From an uncultured Algoriphagus sp. (lineage in GTDB: Bacteria; Bacteroidota; Bacteroidia; Cytophagales; Cyclobacteriaceae), in contig CBFHWO010000006.1 of NCBI GenBank assembly GCA_965659625.1, positions 24,587 to 88,586 of the forward strand: a stretch of 64,000 nucleotides of DNA. Direction: 5' to 3'. Below the pieces are notes generated by a model that saw only the letters and a list, made by a program, of their open reading frames with translations, was not told where the DNA came from and searched no databases. The position numbers were made by a program, and so were the translations under genes. Below are positions 24,199 to 61,786 of the stretch, in pieces. Position 1 is the first letter of the stretch. The number at the start of each line of letters is the position of its first letter.

Positions 24199-25104
24199 AT
24201 GTCCTTAGAAGTATCGCAACTCACCAAACTTTACGGAACCCAAAAAGCACTGGATAATGTGTCTTTCAAGGCTTCGCCCGGGAGGATTTTGGGGTTTTTG
24301 GGTCCCAATGGTGCTGGAAAATCTACAACGATGAAAATCATCACCGGATTTATTCAGGCAGATTCAGGAGCAGTTACGGTAATGGGAAAAGATGCTCTAA
24401 ATAATCCCAAGCAGGTTAGTCCAATGATTGGCTATTTACCTGAAAACAACCCTCTTTATTTAGATATGTATGTGAGAGAGTTTTTGGAGTTTTCTGCTGG
24501 AATGTATGGGTTAACCGGTAAAAAAAGAGAAGAGAGAATTAAAGAACTTCTCCAGAAAACCGGATTGATTCCTGAGCAACACAAAAAAATCGGGCAACTT
24601 TCTAAAGGGTATCGACAAAGAGTTGGATTGGCAAGAGCATTGATTCATGATCCGCAACTGATCATATTAGATGAGCCCACTACGGGATTAGATCCAAACC
24701 AGTTGGTAGAAATCCGAAACCTTATTTCTGAAATTGCTCGTGATAAAACTCTCATTCTTTCTACTCATATTATGCAGGAAGTGGAGGCGATTTGTCATGA
24801 TGTGGTCATCATCAATAAAGGAAAAATCCTAGCTTCTGAGACATTGGAGAATTTGAAATCAAGAACTTCAGAGGAGCAGTTAGAACTCGAGACAGAGGAA
24901 AATCTTGAGCTAGAATGGTTTCAAGAAATAGGAGCGGCTTCTTTTAGTAAAAAATCAGAAAAATCACTTCTGATTTCTTGCAAGGATGCTGGCGAAGCTC
25001 GGAAAGCTATCATGAAAGTTGTTCAGGAAAAGAATCTTAACTTGATAAGCATGAATCAAAGTAAAAAGAATTTGGAACAAATTTTCAGAGAGATTACGCA
25101 ATGA
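24199..25104 (+). CDS. gldA: Gliding-motility-associated ABC transporter ATP-binding subunit GldA
   Basis: It has Walker A (GPNGAGKST), the ABC signature (LSKGYRQR) and Walker B (LIILDEP). Genes of GldF and GldG type follow it. Confidence 0.85.
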   Translation: MSLEVSQLTKLYGTQKALDNVSFKASPGRILGFLGPNGAGKSTTMKIITGFIQADSGAVTVMGKDALNNPKQVSPMIGYLPENNPLYLDMYVREFLEFSAGMYGLTGKKREERIKELLQKTGLIPEQHKKIGQLSKGYRQRVGLARALIHDPQLIILDEPTTGLDPNQLVEIRNLISEIARDKTLILSTHIMQEVEAICHDVVIINKGKILASETLENLKSRTSEEQLELETEENLELEWFQEIGAASFSKKSEKSLLISCKDAGEARKAIMKVVQEKNLNLISMNQSKKNLEQIFREITQ

Positions 25105-25191
25105 AATCGAGCATGACTAAAATGTTACCCACTGGAACAGCTATTAACCATGCGAGATTCCTGATGACCTTTGAAAAACAATTATAAACAG
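25101..25191 (+). repeat. Unit 1 of an ATGAAA-bounded ~90-nt repeat family; contains an intact 28-codon ORF (25101-25187: MKSSMTKMLPTGTAINHARFLMTFEKQL)
   Basis: It shows 5 differences from unit 2 over the first ~72 nt. Its ATG at 25101 overlaps the gldA stop at 25102-25104 (ATGA). Whether it is translated is unproven. Confidence 0.8.
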
Positions 25192-25287
25192 ATGAAATCG
25201 AGCATGACTAAAATGTTACACAATGGAACAGCAATTAACCATGCGAGAATCTTGATGACCTTAAAGAGACAAATCATAATCACATGA
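25192..25287 (+). repeat. Unit 2 of the same repeat family; contains an intact 31-codon ORF (MKSSMTKMLHNGTAINHARILMTLKRQIIIT)
   Basis: It is a direct tandem copy of unit 1. Its stop TGA at 25285-25287 overlaps the gldF ATG at 25284-25286 (ATGA). Confidence 0.8.
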
Positions 25288-26003
25288 AAAGCCTGTTTCT
25301 AAAAGAATTAAATGCATTTTTTGGGAGTCTTTTGGGCTATTTGGTTTTGGCCCTATTCTTAGTTGCAATTGGCTTGATTGTGTGGGTTTTTCCAGAGAGT
25401 AGCGTTCTTGAATATGGCTATGCTGATTTGGAGGCCTTGTTTACCTACACTCCCTATGTATTTACATTTTTAGTGCCTGCTTTAGCGATGCGATCAATCG
25501 CTGACGAAAGAAAAACAGGAACTTGGGAGTTGCTCAGAACTTCTCCGCTTTCATTATTGAAAATTATTTTAGCTAAGTATTTTGCTTTGCTCTTTTTAGT
25601 GATTTTGGCAGTTTTGCCCACCCTGCTTTATTTCTTTAGCATTATACAATTGGGAGATCCGGTCGGCAATTTGGATCAAGCAGGATTTTTTGGATCCTGG
25701 ATAGGTTTGCTGATGATCGGAGCAGTATTTGCGGCGGTTGGTTTATTTGCGAGTTCTCTGACTTCTCAGCAGGTCTTGGCCTTCGTTCTCGGAGTGTTTT
25801 TGTGCTTTGTTCTATACTTTGGGTTTTCAGCTTTGGCGGATTTGCAAGTTGGTGATTTTGCATATTGGGTGGAGGAATTGAGCTTAAGCTTTCATTATAT
25901 CAATTTGAGCAGAGGCGTGGTAGATTCTTCAGACATCTTTTTTATGCTGGGTATGATTTGGCTTTTCTTGGGATTGAGTGTTTTGACTTTGAAAAATAAA
26001 TGA
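25284..26003 (+). CDS. gldF: Gliding-motility-associated ABC transporter permease GldF
   Basis: It is a 239-aa ABC-2-type permease with 6 TM segments and the N-terminus MKSLFLKELNAFFGS. It lies between gldA and gldG. Confidence 0.82.
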   Translation: MKSLFLKELNAFFGSLLGYLVLALFLVAIGLIVWVFPESSVLEYGYADLEALFTYTPYVFTFLVPALAMRSIADERKTGTWELLRTSPLSLLKIILAKYFALLFLVILAVLPTLLYFFSIIQLGDPVGNLDQAGFFGSWIGLLMIGAVFAAVGLFASSLTSQQVLAFVLGVFLCFVLYFGFSALADLQVGDFAYWVEELSLSFHYINLSRGVVDSSDIFFMLGMIWLFLGLSVLTLKNK

Positions 26004-58656: not shown

Positions 58657-59802
58657 ATGAAATCCTTATATTTTTTGACGATTTTAACCATTTTTCTTTT
58701 TCATGGTTGCAATTCTCCTGTTTTGGAGACTAATGAATTAAAATCCCTGAAAATAGACTTTGATAAGGAATTATCATCGGTTCATTTATTAGAATTGGTG
58801 GACCCTGAAATAGAAATAATTCCCTTATCCAACTATGAAAATGATTCGTCAATAGTTTACCTCAAAGAAATCGATAGGATTTATCAGCATCAAGACAAGT
58901 TTTACATTTTTGATATGGTATCAGGTGGAAAAGTGATGGTGTTTGATCAGACAGGTAGTTTCATAAGATCAATTGGACATAGGGGAGAAGGTCCGGGAGG
59001 ATTAATTCAACCAATGGATTTTAGGCTGGAGGGAGATGAGATTTTAGTGCTTGATTTTGGAAAAGTATTGACATTTGATTTAGAAGGAAATTTTATAGAA
59101 TCCCAAAAACTTAATTCTTTTTCAGGGCATAAATTTGCGAAAACTGATAAAGGTTATGCATTTATTGGGGCTGGAAGAGATACTGACAATTTACTACTTA
59201 CTGATGATCAATTTCGCTTAGATACCTCCTATTTTCCCTATCATACAAGAGCATTAAATCCAATTTTGCTTAATTCTCTATATGTCAACCCGGAAGGGAA
59301 ATTGATTTATAGAAGAAACTATCATGATACACTTTATCAAGTTCAAGATCTTTTCAAACCAGTTCCATATTTATACATAGATTTTAGTGAACATAAATCA
59401 AATATTCAGTCTCTATTAAGTTCTCCTGATTTAGAGAATTTATTATTGGCTAAAGGGAGTAAATCCTGTAATATTTTATATTTCTATGAGACGGAAAAAT
59501 ACCAATATTTAGCTTTTACTTTAAGAAATGAAAAGTGGATTTATATACACTCAAATAAATCTGACAAATCTGTTCTTCTTAAAAATTCCAACCTTATCGA
59601 TGAGGTTACTTATAACCCTTCTTCTTATCCAATTGGAGTGGTTGGTGATAGATTTATTTTCAGAGGAAGCCCAGCAAAAATCTTAGAAATTCTGGAAGAG
59701 GAAAATGAAGATTTATTCTTTTACCAAAAATTTCTTGCTTTGAAAAACAACTTTGATAGAGAGGGAAATCCAGTACTGTTCTTGATAAAATTTGATTTTT
59801 AA
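58657..59802 (+). CDS. 6-bladed beta-propeller (BF3164-like) lipoprotein
   Basis: It has a lipobox (LFHGCNS) and repeated beta-propeller-like segments (GEGPGGLIQP). It is markedly AT-rich, at about 30-32% GC in the sampled lines. The family call is from memory. Confidence 0.6.
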   Translation: MKSLYFLTILTIFLFHGCNSPVLETNELKSLKIDFDKELSSVHLLELVDPEIEIIPLSNYENDSSIVYLKEIDRIYQHQDKFYIFDMVSGGKVMVFDQTGSFIRSIGHRGEGPGGLIQPMDFRLEGDEILVLDFGKVLTFDLEGNFIESQKLNSFSGHKFAKTDKGYAFIGAGRDTDNLLLTDDQFRLDTSYFPYHTRALNPILLNSLYVNPEGKLIYRRNYHDTLYQVQDLFKPVPYLYIDFSEHKSNIQSLLSSPDLENLLLAKGSKSCNILYFYETEKYQYLAFTLRNEKWIYIHSNKSDKSVLLKNSNLIDEVTYNPSSYPIGVVGDRFIFRGSPAKILEILEEENEDLFFYQKFLALKNNFDREGNPVLFLIKFDF

Positions 59803-59912
59803 GCTGACAATGGCCTATAATCCATTAAAACCTTGGAATAGGTCTTACTTTTTGTTTTCTTGAAGTTAAACCCGGTAGCCAGTAACTTTTTTGATTATTT
59901 AAAATTACCTTA

Positions 59913-60005
59913 ATGAAATTGAGCATGACTCATAGCGTCCAACAGAGGGATGATTGTAATTCGAGATTCCATATGACCAAAAAAAATCAAATTATAAACG
60001 TATGA
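59913..60005 (+). repeat. Unit 3 of the ATGAAA-bounded ~90-nt repeat family; contains an intact 30-codon ORF (MKLSMTHSVQQRDDCNSRFHMTKKNQIINV)
   Basis: It shares the 5' box ATGAAATTGAGCATGACT, the 3' box CGAGATTCC.TATGACC and the tail CAAATTATAAAC with the units at 25101 and 25192. Its stop TGA at 60003-60005 overlaps the GH15 ATG at 60002-60004. Confidence 0.75.
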
Positions 60006-61786
60006 AAAAACATACCTATGGAAGTGGGTTGATTGGTAATTGTGCTTATATCGCCCATGTAGAGAAGGACACCAATATCAGCTGGCTTTGTCTTCCTAGA
60101 TTTGACTCAGATTTTATTTTCGGTGGCATGCTGGATCGCGAAAGAGGAGGTCAGTTTACGATCTTGCCAGAATCCAGCGATTTTGAAACCACTCAAGTCT
60201 ATAAGGAAAACACCAATATCCTGGAGACAACTGTGACTTATGGAGAGAACAACAGCTATAAGGTGACGGACTTTGCTCCAAGATTTAAGAATTTTGACCG
60301 ATACTATAAGCCATTGATGCTTATCCGAAAAATAGAAAGCCTAACTGGCTCACCTAGGATAAAGATAAAATGTGAACCAGTTTCTGATAATGGCAAGACC
60401 AAATTAATCCCAAGCCTAGGAAGTAATCATATTCGGTATACTGGAATTGATCAGGAATTGAGATTGACAACAAATGCTCCTATGAGCTATATTATGGATG
60501 ACAAAGCGTTTGCTTTTCACCGCCCTGTTTATTTGATTTTGACTTATGGCAGACCTTTGGAAGCTCCAATTGAGACAACTGCTGAAAAGTTTTTACATGA
60601 GACAACCTCTTATTGGCAGCAGTGGGTGAAGTCAACCAGTATTCCAAACTTTCATCAGAAGTTTGTTTTGAGGTCCGCTTTGATTCTTAAAATACATCAA
60701 TATGAGGATACTGGAGCCATTATCGCCGCATCGACCACCAGTTTGCCCGAGTCTCCAAATTCGACTAGAAATTGGGATTACCGATATTGCTGGATCCGGG
60801 ATACTTATTATACTTTGACTTGTTTCAATAGTCTTGGACACTTTGAGGAGCTGGAGAAGTACTTTGAGTTTATTCATAATCTAAATACTGGTGAAAATGG
60901 ACGCTATCAGCCATTGTATTCGATTACAGGAAACTCCCTTTTAACAGAAGAGATTTCTGATCTTGATGGGTATTTGGGAAATAAACCGGTTCGTTTTGGA
61001 AATCAAGCCTATACGCATATTCAGAATGACCTTTATGGTCAAGTACTCGTGTCACTTTTGCCTTTGTATTCTGATCAAAGATTTACAAAAGAAGAAAGAA
61101 GTCACTCCAGACCGATGATCATGAACTTGCTGAATAAAATCGAGTCAACCATGAACGAAAAAGATGCAGGGTTGTGGGAGTTCAGGAATCTTGCGCAAGA
61201 GCATTGCTATACCTTTTTATTTCATTGGGCTGGAGCAAGTGCAGCTGCAAAAATAGGGATCCGTTTAAAAAACGATGACATGTACCAAAAGGCAATCTAT
61301 CTAAGAGATGAGGCAGTTAAGAAGATAGAATCGTGTTATCTACCGGATAAGAAAGCCTATGGCCAAGCTGTTGGTTCATCGTTTATGGATGCTTCTACTC
61401 TTCAACTCATTACGATGGGTTATTTTGGCGATGACATAGAGCGAGCCAATGACCATTTGAAGGCTTTGGAAGATGAGCTTTTGGCAAAAGATTTTCTCTT
61501 CTACCGGTATAAGCATATGGATGATTTTGGAATACCGGAAACCACTTTTCTGATTTGTGCATTTTGGTATATTGAGGCTTTAGCTTGTGTAGAAAGGGTA
61601 GATGAAGCCATAGAAGGATTTGAAACTTTGATAAAATATTGCAATCATTTGGATCTATTCTCGGAAGATGTTGACCAAAAAACAGGAAGTCAATGGGGGA
61701 ATTTCCCACAGGCATATTCCCACGTTGGTCTGATGAATGCAGCTTACCGAATCGGAAAGAAACTGGATAGGCCAAATTTCTTATAA
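60002..61786 (+). CDS. Glycoside hydrolase family 15 protein (glucoamylase/trehalase-like)
   Basis: It has the N-terminus GLIGNCAYIAHV...ISWLCLPRFDS and the later motifs WDYRYCWIRD and FPQAYSHVGL. Confidence 0.88.
   Translation: MKKHTYGSGLIGNCAYIAHVEKDTNISWLCLPRFDSDFIFGGMLDRERGGQFTILPESSDFETTQVYKENTNILETTVTYGENNSYKVTDFAPRFKNFDRYYKPLMLIRKIESLTGSPRIKIKCEPVSDNGKTKLIPSLGSNHIRYTGIDQELRLTTNAPMSYIMDDKAFAFHRPVYLILTYGRPLEAPIETTAEKFLHETTSYWQQWVKSTSIPNFHQKFVLRSALILKIHQYEDTGAIIAASTTSLPESPNSTRNWDYRYCWIRDTYYTLTCFNSLGHFEELEKYFEFIHNLNTGENGRYQPLYSITGNSLLTEEISDLDGYLGNKPVRFGNQAYTHIQNDLYGQVLVSLLPLYSDQRFTKEERSHSRPMIMNLLNKIESTMNEKDAGLWEFRNLAQEHCYTFLFHWAGASAAAKIGIRLKNDDMYQKAIYLRDEAVKKIESCYLPDKKAYGQAVGSSFMDASTLQLITMGYFGDDIERANDHLKALEDELLAKDFLFYRYKHMDDFGIPETTFLICAFWYIEALACVERVDEAIEGFETLIKYCNHLDLFSEDVDQKTGSQWGNFPQAYSHVGLMNAAYRIGKKLDRPNFL

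Follow-up and report, generated by a model that had tools for sequence, protein, structure and literature searches.

A Short Repeat Fused to the Start Codon of a GH15 Gene in Algoriphagus Is Probably a Copy of a Non-Autonomous Mobile Family

Introduction

In an uncultured Algoriphagus sp., the start codon of a GH15 glycoside hydrolase gene is directly preceded by an 89-nt unit whose end boxes recur at the gldA/gldF junction of the same stretch of DNA. How does such a unit come to end exactly at a start codon, and does it serve the gene that it adjoins? The whole stretch that was analysed, referred to here as the window, is 64,000 nt long. An initial annotation of the window had described the unit, named here u3, as sharing its end boxes with a tandem pair at 25101-25283, and all the features stated for it are present in the sequence. 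The units and genes concerned are the following.

59913-60001, plus strand: u3, 89 nt, family copy with the native leader ...AAAATTACCTTA on its 5' side and the GH15 start codon on its 3' side (covariance model, empty sites)
59913-59915, plus strand: 5' ATG, which opens a 30-codon ORF at 59913-60005 (ORF list)
60002-61786, plus strand: GH15 glycoside hydrolase gene (Pfam PF00723, E 1e-47); its ATGAAA is the proposed insertion target and its ATG pairs with the CAU of the box described below
25101-25191, plus strand: u1, a unit of the same family at the gldA/gldF junction (covariance model, orthologous loci)
25192-25283, plus strand: u2, a unit of the same family directly 5' of the gldF ATG (covariance model, orthologous loci)

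The first letters of u3 are ATGAAATTGAGCATGACT and the last are ...CAAATTATAAACGT, and ATGAAAAAACAT lies directly 3' of it at 60002. We propose, with a probability of about 0.75, that u3 is a copy of a ~90-nt non-autonomous mobile family that inserts precisely, and in sense orientation, at ATGAA(A) start codons.

Results

Membership of u3 in a Repeat Family

The covariance model R1 was constructed from 19 copies of the repeat and a structure given by hand. It matched u3 over model positions 1-98 with a score of 78.8 bits (E 1.3e-10). u3 has the 5' box, the mid box, the CAU-N-UG box, the A-rich tail, and the ATG at the end that characterize the family. Its 5' box is also found at 25101 and 25192 with one mismatch each; four matches were obtained at up to three mismatches, compared to 0.19 expected. 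The 3' box matches 25153 with two mismatches. The central ~40 nt of u3 had been regarded as unrelated to the pair, and this view had to be reversed, as u3 contains the family core there (CAACAGAGGGAUGAUUGU versus the consensus ACACAGAGGGAUGAUUAU), and u1 and u2 are the units without it. The identity of u3 to u1 and u2 is 65-68%, and its closest relative among the copies of this genome is 75.5% identical.

About 50 copies were detected in this genome (4.89 Mb, 93 contigs, 38% G+C) by fuzzy search, BLAST, and nhmmer, and 42 copies were found with R1 at E < 0.01. One of the 42 is u3, so the idea of a dispersed element fused to a start codon was borne out, and the genome-wide search that had been suggested as a check did return many further copies. 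At least 42 of ~47 copies adjoin a real gene start or another unit on the same strand. The host genes are mutually unrelated and include those for GH15, gldF, sucC, aspartokinase, a response regulator, and many secreted proteins. The median pairwise identity of the copies in this genome is 63%; these copies are old. A subfamily, B, was noticed at C1:356376, C5:105808, C5:108471, C7:8998, C32:26770, C61:986, and on C29 near 28360. In its units, which often stand in tandem with a type-A unit, GCCC/GGGC replaces CGAGCAU/AUGCGAG in the inner half of the helix P1.

The search was extended to other genomes. R1 detected from 0 to at least 101 copies in 24 congeners and gave matches in 58 of 141 genomes, or 51 of 118 sampled genera, within the family; in several of these genomes the number of matches reached the scoring cap. 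In other families of the order, 15 of 16 had no R1 match and one had a single match. A pattern scan of named genomes pointed to Algoriphagus above all, with further hosts in Lunatibacter, Lunatimonas, Cyclobacterium, Pararhodonellum, Negadavirga, Pleomorphovibrio, Aquiflexum, and Anditalea. The repeat family is confined, as far as searched, to Cyclobacteriaceae, and Algoriphagus is the richest in it. No relevant match was obtained in Rfam (the window at the gathering threshold; u3 and a consensus-like copy at E up to 10), and none in plasmid and phage collections. A literature search found no account of such an element for Algoriphagus or Cyclobacteriaceae, and the start-codon repeat of Algoriphagus and its relatives is apparently undescribed so far.

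Empty Sites and Recent Copies

At the GH15 locus, the unit is absent from 17 of the 17 orthologues found in the genus. In the nearest of them, from the sister genome G001 (92% amino acid identity), the flanks can be aligned: ...AAAAAGACATTA is followed immediately by ATGAAAAAACAT, whereas here ...AAAATTACCTTA and ATGAAAAAACAT are separated by 89 nt. The empty junction of G001 reads ...GACATTA joined to ATGAAAAAACAT. The excised state that had been predicted from u3, with the leader joined to the ATG, is thus a real sequence in G001 and in 16 other orthologues. The orthologues begin at the same ATG and have no longer N-terminus, and the empty site of G001 shows that the start assigned to GH15 is right. 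The genus also shares a conserved motif of the type CCCTTTTTTGCTTTCTTG...GACCC...AGCC upstream of this start (59780-59912 of the window, orthologous loci L032-L048). It is probably the promoter and leader of the GH15 gene, and the insertion point of u3 lies downstream of it.

At the second locus, the tandem pair u1/u2 lies between the ORFs 24199-25104 and 25284-26003. The ancestral state of the gldA/gldF junction is a stop/start overlap, ACGAAATGAAAAGCC, and most genomes are empty there. One unit is present in G001, G041, G051, G010, G049, and G013, and two are present in this genome. The junction is empty in G054 and G002, which are close relatives of the filled G051 and have the same junction sequence; the gldF products of these three genomes are each ~89% identical to that of this genome. 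Among 13 copies of G001 with an identifiable orthologous site, five sites are empty in this genome (G000) and six copies are shared. In the burst genomes G187, G107, and G082, identical 91-nt units were found before unrelated genes, from which it follows that the family is mobile. A single ancient gain followed by imprecise deletions at orthologous positions is already contradicted by these data.

Up to four units of different subtypes are arranged head to tail at one start codon in the burst genomes. Tandem neighbours tend to differ in their box type (L249, L256, L257, L258; G187, G107). In the arrays of G187 and G107, a CAG-ending tail is followed by a unit with N=G 16 times and by a unit with N=C four times. 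The scarcity of like-with-like tandems may be due to loss by recombination.

Target Site and Proposed Replacement of the Start Codon

The sequence directly 3' of the unit was determined for 163 distinct units. It is ATGAAA in 149 cases and ATGAAT in nine, and 42% of the units in this set are preceded by the CA-N tail of another unit; occupied sites are hit again. In this genome, only 22% of the ORFs start with ATGAAA, as judged from crude calls (first ATG, at least 120 amino acids). The ~9,000 ATGAAA sites include 868 at such ORF starts and 1,482 outside long ORFs. As ~90% of the copies are at true starts, the hexamer alone, even with intragenic insertions purged, is an insufficient explanation.

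A direct case of the element replacing a start codon is provided by locus L206 (G001:C296, around 21188). Compared with C2:172200, the insertion is located 6 nt inside the gene (ATGCCG^AAATC). ATGCCG of the host is retained on the left, and an ATG brought by the element is now the start of the gene, which is one codon shorter (MKSY versus MRESY). On the basis of this retained 5' flank and of the comparison between empty and filled sites, the 5' ATG of u3 is most likely the original start codon of the host gene. ATGAAA is present at both ends of the unit, but at targets of ATGAAT or CCGAAATC the 5' copy is still ATGAAAT. The 5' ATGAAAT seems to be an end of the element with a likeness to the target and not a true target-site duplication.

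According to the mechanism that we propose, the 5' ATG would be the old start of the host, with its native leader and, where present, the overlapping TGA of the upstream gene. The element would supply the 3' ATG and the A-rich tail before it, so that the invaded gene would keep a usable start. In ~59% of the copies, including u3, a ribosome coming from the old ATG would stop at the new ATG or not more than 10 nt from it (ATGA or UAA). This arrangement, which is similar to that of mycobacterial MIRUs, would make an insertion less costly.

Fold of the mRNA-Sense Strand and Its Possible Regulatory Role

Structure statistics were calculated for an alignment of 125 copies fitted to R1. The elements of the fold in u3 are listed below.

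59917-59926, plus strand: 5' strand of P1, AAUUGAGCAU; one pair of u3 is G.U through a C-to-U change (pairing of P1 across 125 copies, 90-99%)
59927-59939, plus strand: P2, variable hairpin GAC-UCAUAGC-GUC (AU/UA and GC/UA swaps)
59940-59957, plus strand: conserved single-stranded core CAACAGAGGGAUGAUUGU, consensus ACACA-SW-GGGAUGAUUAU (alignment)
59959-59968, plus strand: 3' strand of P1, AUUCGAGAUU, with tandem G.A / A.G opposite 59921-59922 and one U.C mismatch in u3 (alignment)
59970-59975, plus strand: box CAUAUG (family CAU-N-UG), which pairs with 59999-60004 (helix 4, 96.5% paired)
59976-60001, plus strand: A-rich tail ACCAAAAAAAAUCAAAUUAUAAACGU, now the immediate GH15 leader; its last CGU pairs with the box (one U.G)

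Paired cells amounted to 92.6%, as compared with 85% in shuffles and 15-46% with the partners slid, and both-side changes were observed in 15 of 18 pairs. In the family, P1 is formed by AAAUCGAGCAU and AUGCGAGAUU with an internal tandem G.A. In P2, GAC...GUC swaps to GUC...GAC and the loop is often of the GNRA type. An optional GC-rich hairpin follows GAGAUUC, and the A-rich tail ends with CA-N' before the ATG. The box CAU-N-UG pairs with CA-N'-AUG at the gene start, and the N:N' position was examined separately. The pair counts were GC 43, CG 31, AU 22, and UA 2, with few mismatches, and an independent regex parse gave a Watson-Crick pair in 145 of 163 units. When those columns were left out of the tree, at least 33 switches of pair type were counted; a tree from sequences of 90 nt is weak. 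In P1 and P5, G.U pairs outnumber A.C (22 versus 7), which indicates the mRNA-sense strand.

The minimum-energy fold of two young copies consists of P1 and the start-codon helix (z -2.1 and -1.7). The fold of u3, with one G.U and one mismatch in P1, is no better than that of shuffles (z +0.37); its box CAUAUG pairs fully with CGUAUG. No covariation was visible by eye between AUGAUU of the conserved core and AAUUAU of the tail or between ACACA and the box. The 5' flank was compared with the N of the own unit, which corresponds to the box with the tail of the upstream unit; 15 of 69 cases were complementary, and this pairing is unsupported. A hammerhead reading of CUGAUGA...GAAA in u1 was rejected, as the motif is not conserved in other copies.

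Nested GC-rich hairpins were observed at one fixed place, between GAGATTC and CAT-N-TG. Examples of their sequences are CTGTCCTACGGCAGGCGGGC, TCCCGA-N6-TCGGGACAGGCT, and CCTGCCTGACGGAAGGCAGG, and the carriers in this genome are the copies on C51 (before the gene at C51:14077, minus strand) and at C1:198151, C14:104087, C7:96801, C29:17387, and C83:1356. The hairpin of the C51 copy is absent from the orthologous G001 copy, L215, which points to a later nested insertion; these hairpins look like a second small mobile element, REP-like, that prefers this site.

The rate of change of resident copies was estimated from the comparison of this genome with G001. In gldF and gldA, 52-57% of the 4-fold degenerate sites differ, and identity is 76-79% for the orthologous gldA/gldF units and 93% for the shared unit before the gene at C7:8906. 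As the units change more slowly than the 4-fold sites, purifying selection or homogenisation acts on many resident copies. It does not act on all of them, since the orthologous copies L213 and L217 are decayed.

These data also bear on the possibility that a unit of the u3 type is primarily a regulatory leader of the host. Such a riboregulator would hide the start codon in the CAU-N-UG / CA-N'-AUG helix, which would open on a signal such as temperature, a protein, or a small RNA, and mobility would be its mode of spread. The reading is compatible with a mobile element and does not exclude it; as a primary role, we consider it rather unlikely. The start-codon helix, paired in 96.5% with compensatory changes and present in the folds of the young copies, would suit such a function, as would the slow change of resident copies and the ~18-nt single-stranded core, which resembles a binding site. 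On the other hand, the helix consists of six weak pairs closing a ~23-nt loop and is lost in the conserved gldA/gldF copies, and a pairing required for transposition predicts the same covariation. The host genes are functionally unrelated, the presence of the unit at the same gene varies between sister species, and there is no Rfam family, a combination that does not fit a riboswitch or a curated cis-regulatory RNA.

The Small ORF

The initial annotation had emphasized the intact 30-codon ORF, whose TGA overlaps the ATG of the 594-aa ORF at 60002-61786 (ATGA). This is true for u3, but the overlap marks one length class and not the whole family. In this genome, the unit lengths modulo 3 take all three values, ATGA overlap occurs in 8 of ~47 copies, and many copies stop after 6-12 codons. 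Among 91 full copies from many genomes, we found the ATGA overlap in 31, a stop not more than 10 nt before the ATG in 23, an in-frame fusion in 8, and an early stop in 29. The peptide reading therefore finds no support as a general rule. In the suggested check of codon periodicity against paired positions, the variation tracked the paired positions. Since it follows base pairs and not codon positions, no peptide sequence is conserved. A conserved micro-peptide as a feature of the family was rejected on these grounds, that is, the early stops, the occurrence of all length classes, and the variation by base pair.

A working small ORF in u3 would mean that it is translated from the old start and delivers ribosomes to the GH15 ATG via ATGA, or that it encodes a functional micro-peptide. 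This is possible but doubtful as an account of the unit. It agrees with the exact -4 geometry of u3, with the 31 ATGA overlaps and the 23 stops near the ATG counted above, and with the precedent of MIRUs (PMC12548453). The body of the unit is stop-free in the 5'-ATG frame in 79 of 91 copies, compared to 56 of 91 for a control frame and 29% for shuffled sequences, and the in-frame length class is the rarest (15 of 91). These figures are confounded, however, since lengths of 91 and 92 nt dominate and the copies share ancestry. Against it are the early stops, the in-frame fusions, and the few ATGA overlaps in this genome. Hairpin insertions of any length are tolerated, and the variation is by base pair. 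Ribosome delivery of the MIRU kind is possible for u3 and about half of the family, but it is not a defining feature.

A chance resemblance, or a mis-called start that conceals a longer GH15 N-terminus, can practically be dismissed, because u3 is a covariance hit with E 1.3e-10 among 42 copies, the 17 orthologues begin at the same Met without the 89 nt, and the 30-codon ORF and GH15 are in different frames.

Complementarity of the Box to the Element Joint

The reading of u3 as a mobile copy leads to the question of how the start codon would be found. The box stretch GAUUCCAU-N-UG is antisense, with one A.C, to CA-N' joined to AUGAAAUC, which would be the joint of a circular or excised copy; a circular joint would read CA-N'ATGAAATCG. 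Up to AUGAAA, the same sequence would form the joint between an inserted copy and its target. Since the box is antisense to the joint, P1 and the start-codon helix would be two halves of one long helix across it, and the box may be read as a built-in guide. It would align the ends of the element with the ATGAAA target for a site-specific recombinase or transposase acting in trans. The guide is suggested by this complementarity, and the covariation of box and start would equally arise from selection on the mRNA. That the family homes to start codons by means of its own box and a trans-acting recombinase, and that the helix then masks the start, giving a mobile translational control module kept by the host, seems improbable to us at present.

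Search for a Mobilising Enzyme

A mobilising gene was sought in this genome among Y1, IS110, TnpB, and reverse transcriptase genes, and none was found for the repeat. Four IS200-like Y1 (RAYT-type) genes are present at C38:298-639 (minus strand), C9:123514-123852 (plus strand), C55:12017-12205 (minus strand), and C28:24667-24837 (minus strand). Each is flanked by its own palindromic REPs (e.g., GTCCTGCTTCTGGAGAAGCAGGAC and TGCCAAAGGCAAGAC), unrelated to the start-codon repeat, and the four Y1 transposases were rejected as mobilisers because they go with these other hairpins. The only IS110 of this genome is a single copy, unrelated to the repeat, and was also rejected. This genome contains neither TnpB nor a reverse transcriptase. 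A reverse transcriptase is present in five of five burst genomes examined; it was discarded as a candidate, as there is no correlation with copy number across 40 congeners. The partial matches and the copies with long inserts yielded no autonomous long version, only nested GC-rich hairpins. In the one-contig genome G050, the 89 copies form local strand clusters, and no two-replichore pattern was seen by eye.

Discussion

Among known systems, the closest analogue of the start-codon repeat is the mycobacterial MIRU. MIRUs are repeats of 40-100 nt, apparently mobile, which insert at start codons and form tandem copies; their internal ORF ends at -4 nt (ATGA) relative to the gene that they invade, an arrangement regarded as keeping the cost of insertion to a minimum (PMC12548453). 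The repeat described here is likewise short, apparently mobile, inserted at start codons, and found in tandem, and u3 has an ATGA (-4) ORF. It differs in that the -4 ORF occurs in only about a third of the copies (31/91), and what is conserved is a fold whose box pairs with the start codon. The arrays mix different subtypes, whereas those of MIRUs consist of one repeated unit. No sequence relation is expected between the repeat, which belongs to the phylum Bacteroidota, and MIRUs; because of the different phylum, the repeat is classed as an analogue and not as a member. The present analysis adds the fold, the helix at the start codon, and a box that resembles a guide.

The repeat also resembles the PATEs of IS200/IS605 and the REP/RAYT systems (HUH Y1) in being small, non-autonomous, and structured, in having no terminal inverted repeats, and in inserting beside a short specific sequence without obvious duplication. 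IS608 recognises its ends and its target through base pairing to an internal guide beside the foot of a hairpin, and the box of the repeat, being antisense to its own joint and target, may be compared with that guide. In contrast to IS200/IS605 elements, the 89 copies in G050 have no replichore-wide strand bias by eye, no cognate Y1 with similar ends was found (the four Y1 genes have other REPs), and there is no TnpB. Moreover, the wobble counts point to the mRNA-sense strand, where the target is located 3' and not 5' of the element.

With the attC sites of integrons, the repeat shares only a logic, that is a folded single strand with a stem completed across an excised or circular joint, a short core repeated at both borders, and head-to-tail arrays. 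It lacks an integrase, an attI platform, and a cargo gene, and it is scattered at hundreds of gene starts. It may further be likened to bacterial MITEs (Correia, ERIC, RUP), which have ~100 nt, occur in many copies, are transcribed with their neighbours, and are able to alter expression. Unlike in MITEs, the orientation and position of the repeat relative to the start codon are strictly fixed. Terminal inverted repeats are also missing, as ATGAAATCGAGC at the 5' end and ...AATTATAAACAC at the 3' end do not form an inverted pair, and the inverted repeat is internal (P1).

If u3 is a mobile copy as proposed, selfish DNA can occupy the most sensitive part of a gene cheaply by finding and replacing start codons, and this family rewrites the leaders of dozens to more than 100 genes per genome. 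Bacteroidota are largely without Shine-Dalgarno-led initiation, and their translation initiation depends on unstructured A-rich leaders; the insertions would be natural experiments on the requirements of a start site in this phylum. If the box truly guides insertion, an unrecognised guided recombination system would be involved. Self-guided homing, if true, would represent a novel form of nucleic-acid-guided insertion, one directed to a coding signal and not to a fixed genomic site.

For the annotation of Cyclobacteriaceae genomes, the units explain many spurious ORFs of ~30 codons and odd 'ATGA' junctions. Typical copies were also noticed on contigs in MAGs labelled Planctomycetota (L104, L121) and Limnohabitans (L108). 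The presence of these contigs in MAGs of unrelated phyla is likely a result of mis-binning, and the repeat could therefore be used as a taxonomic marker for such contigs.
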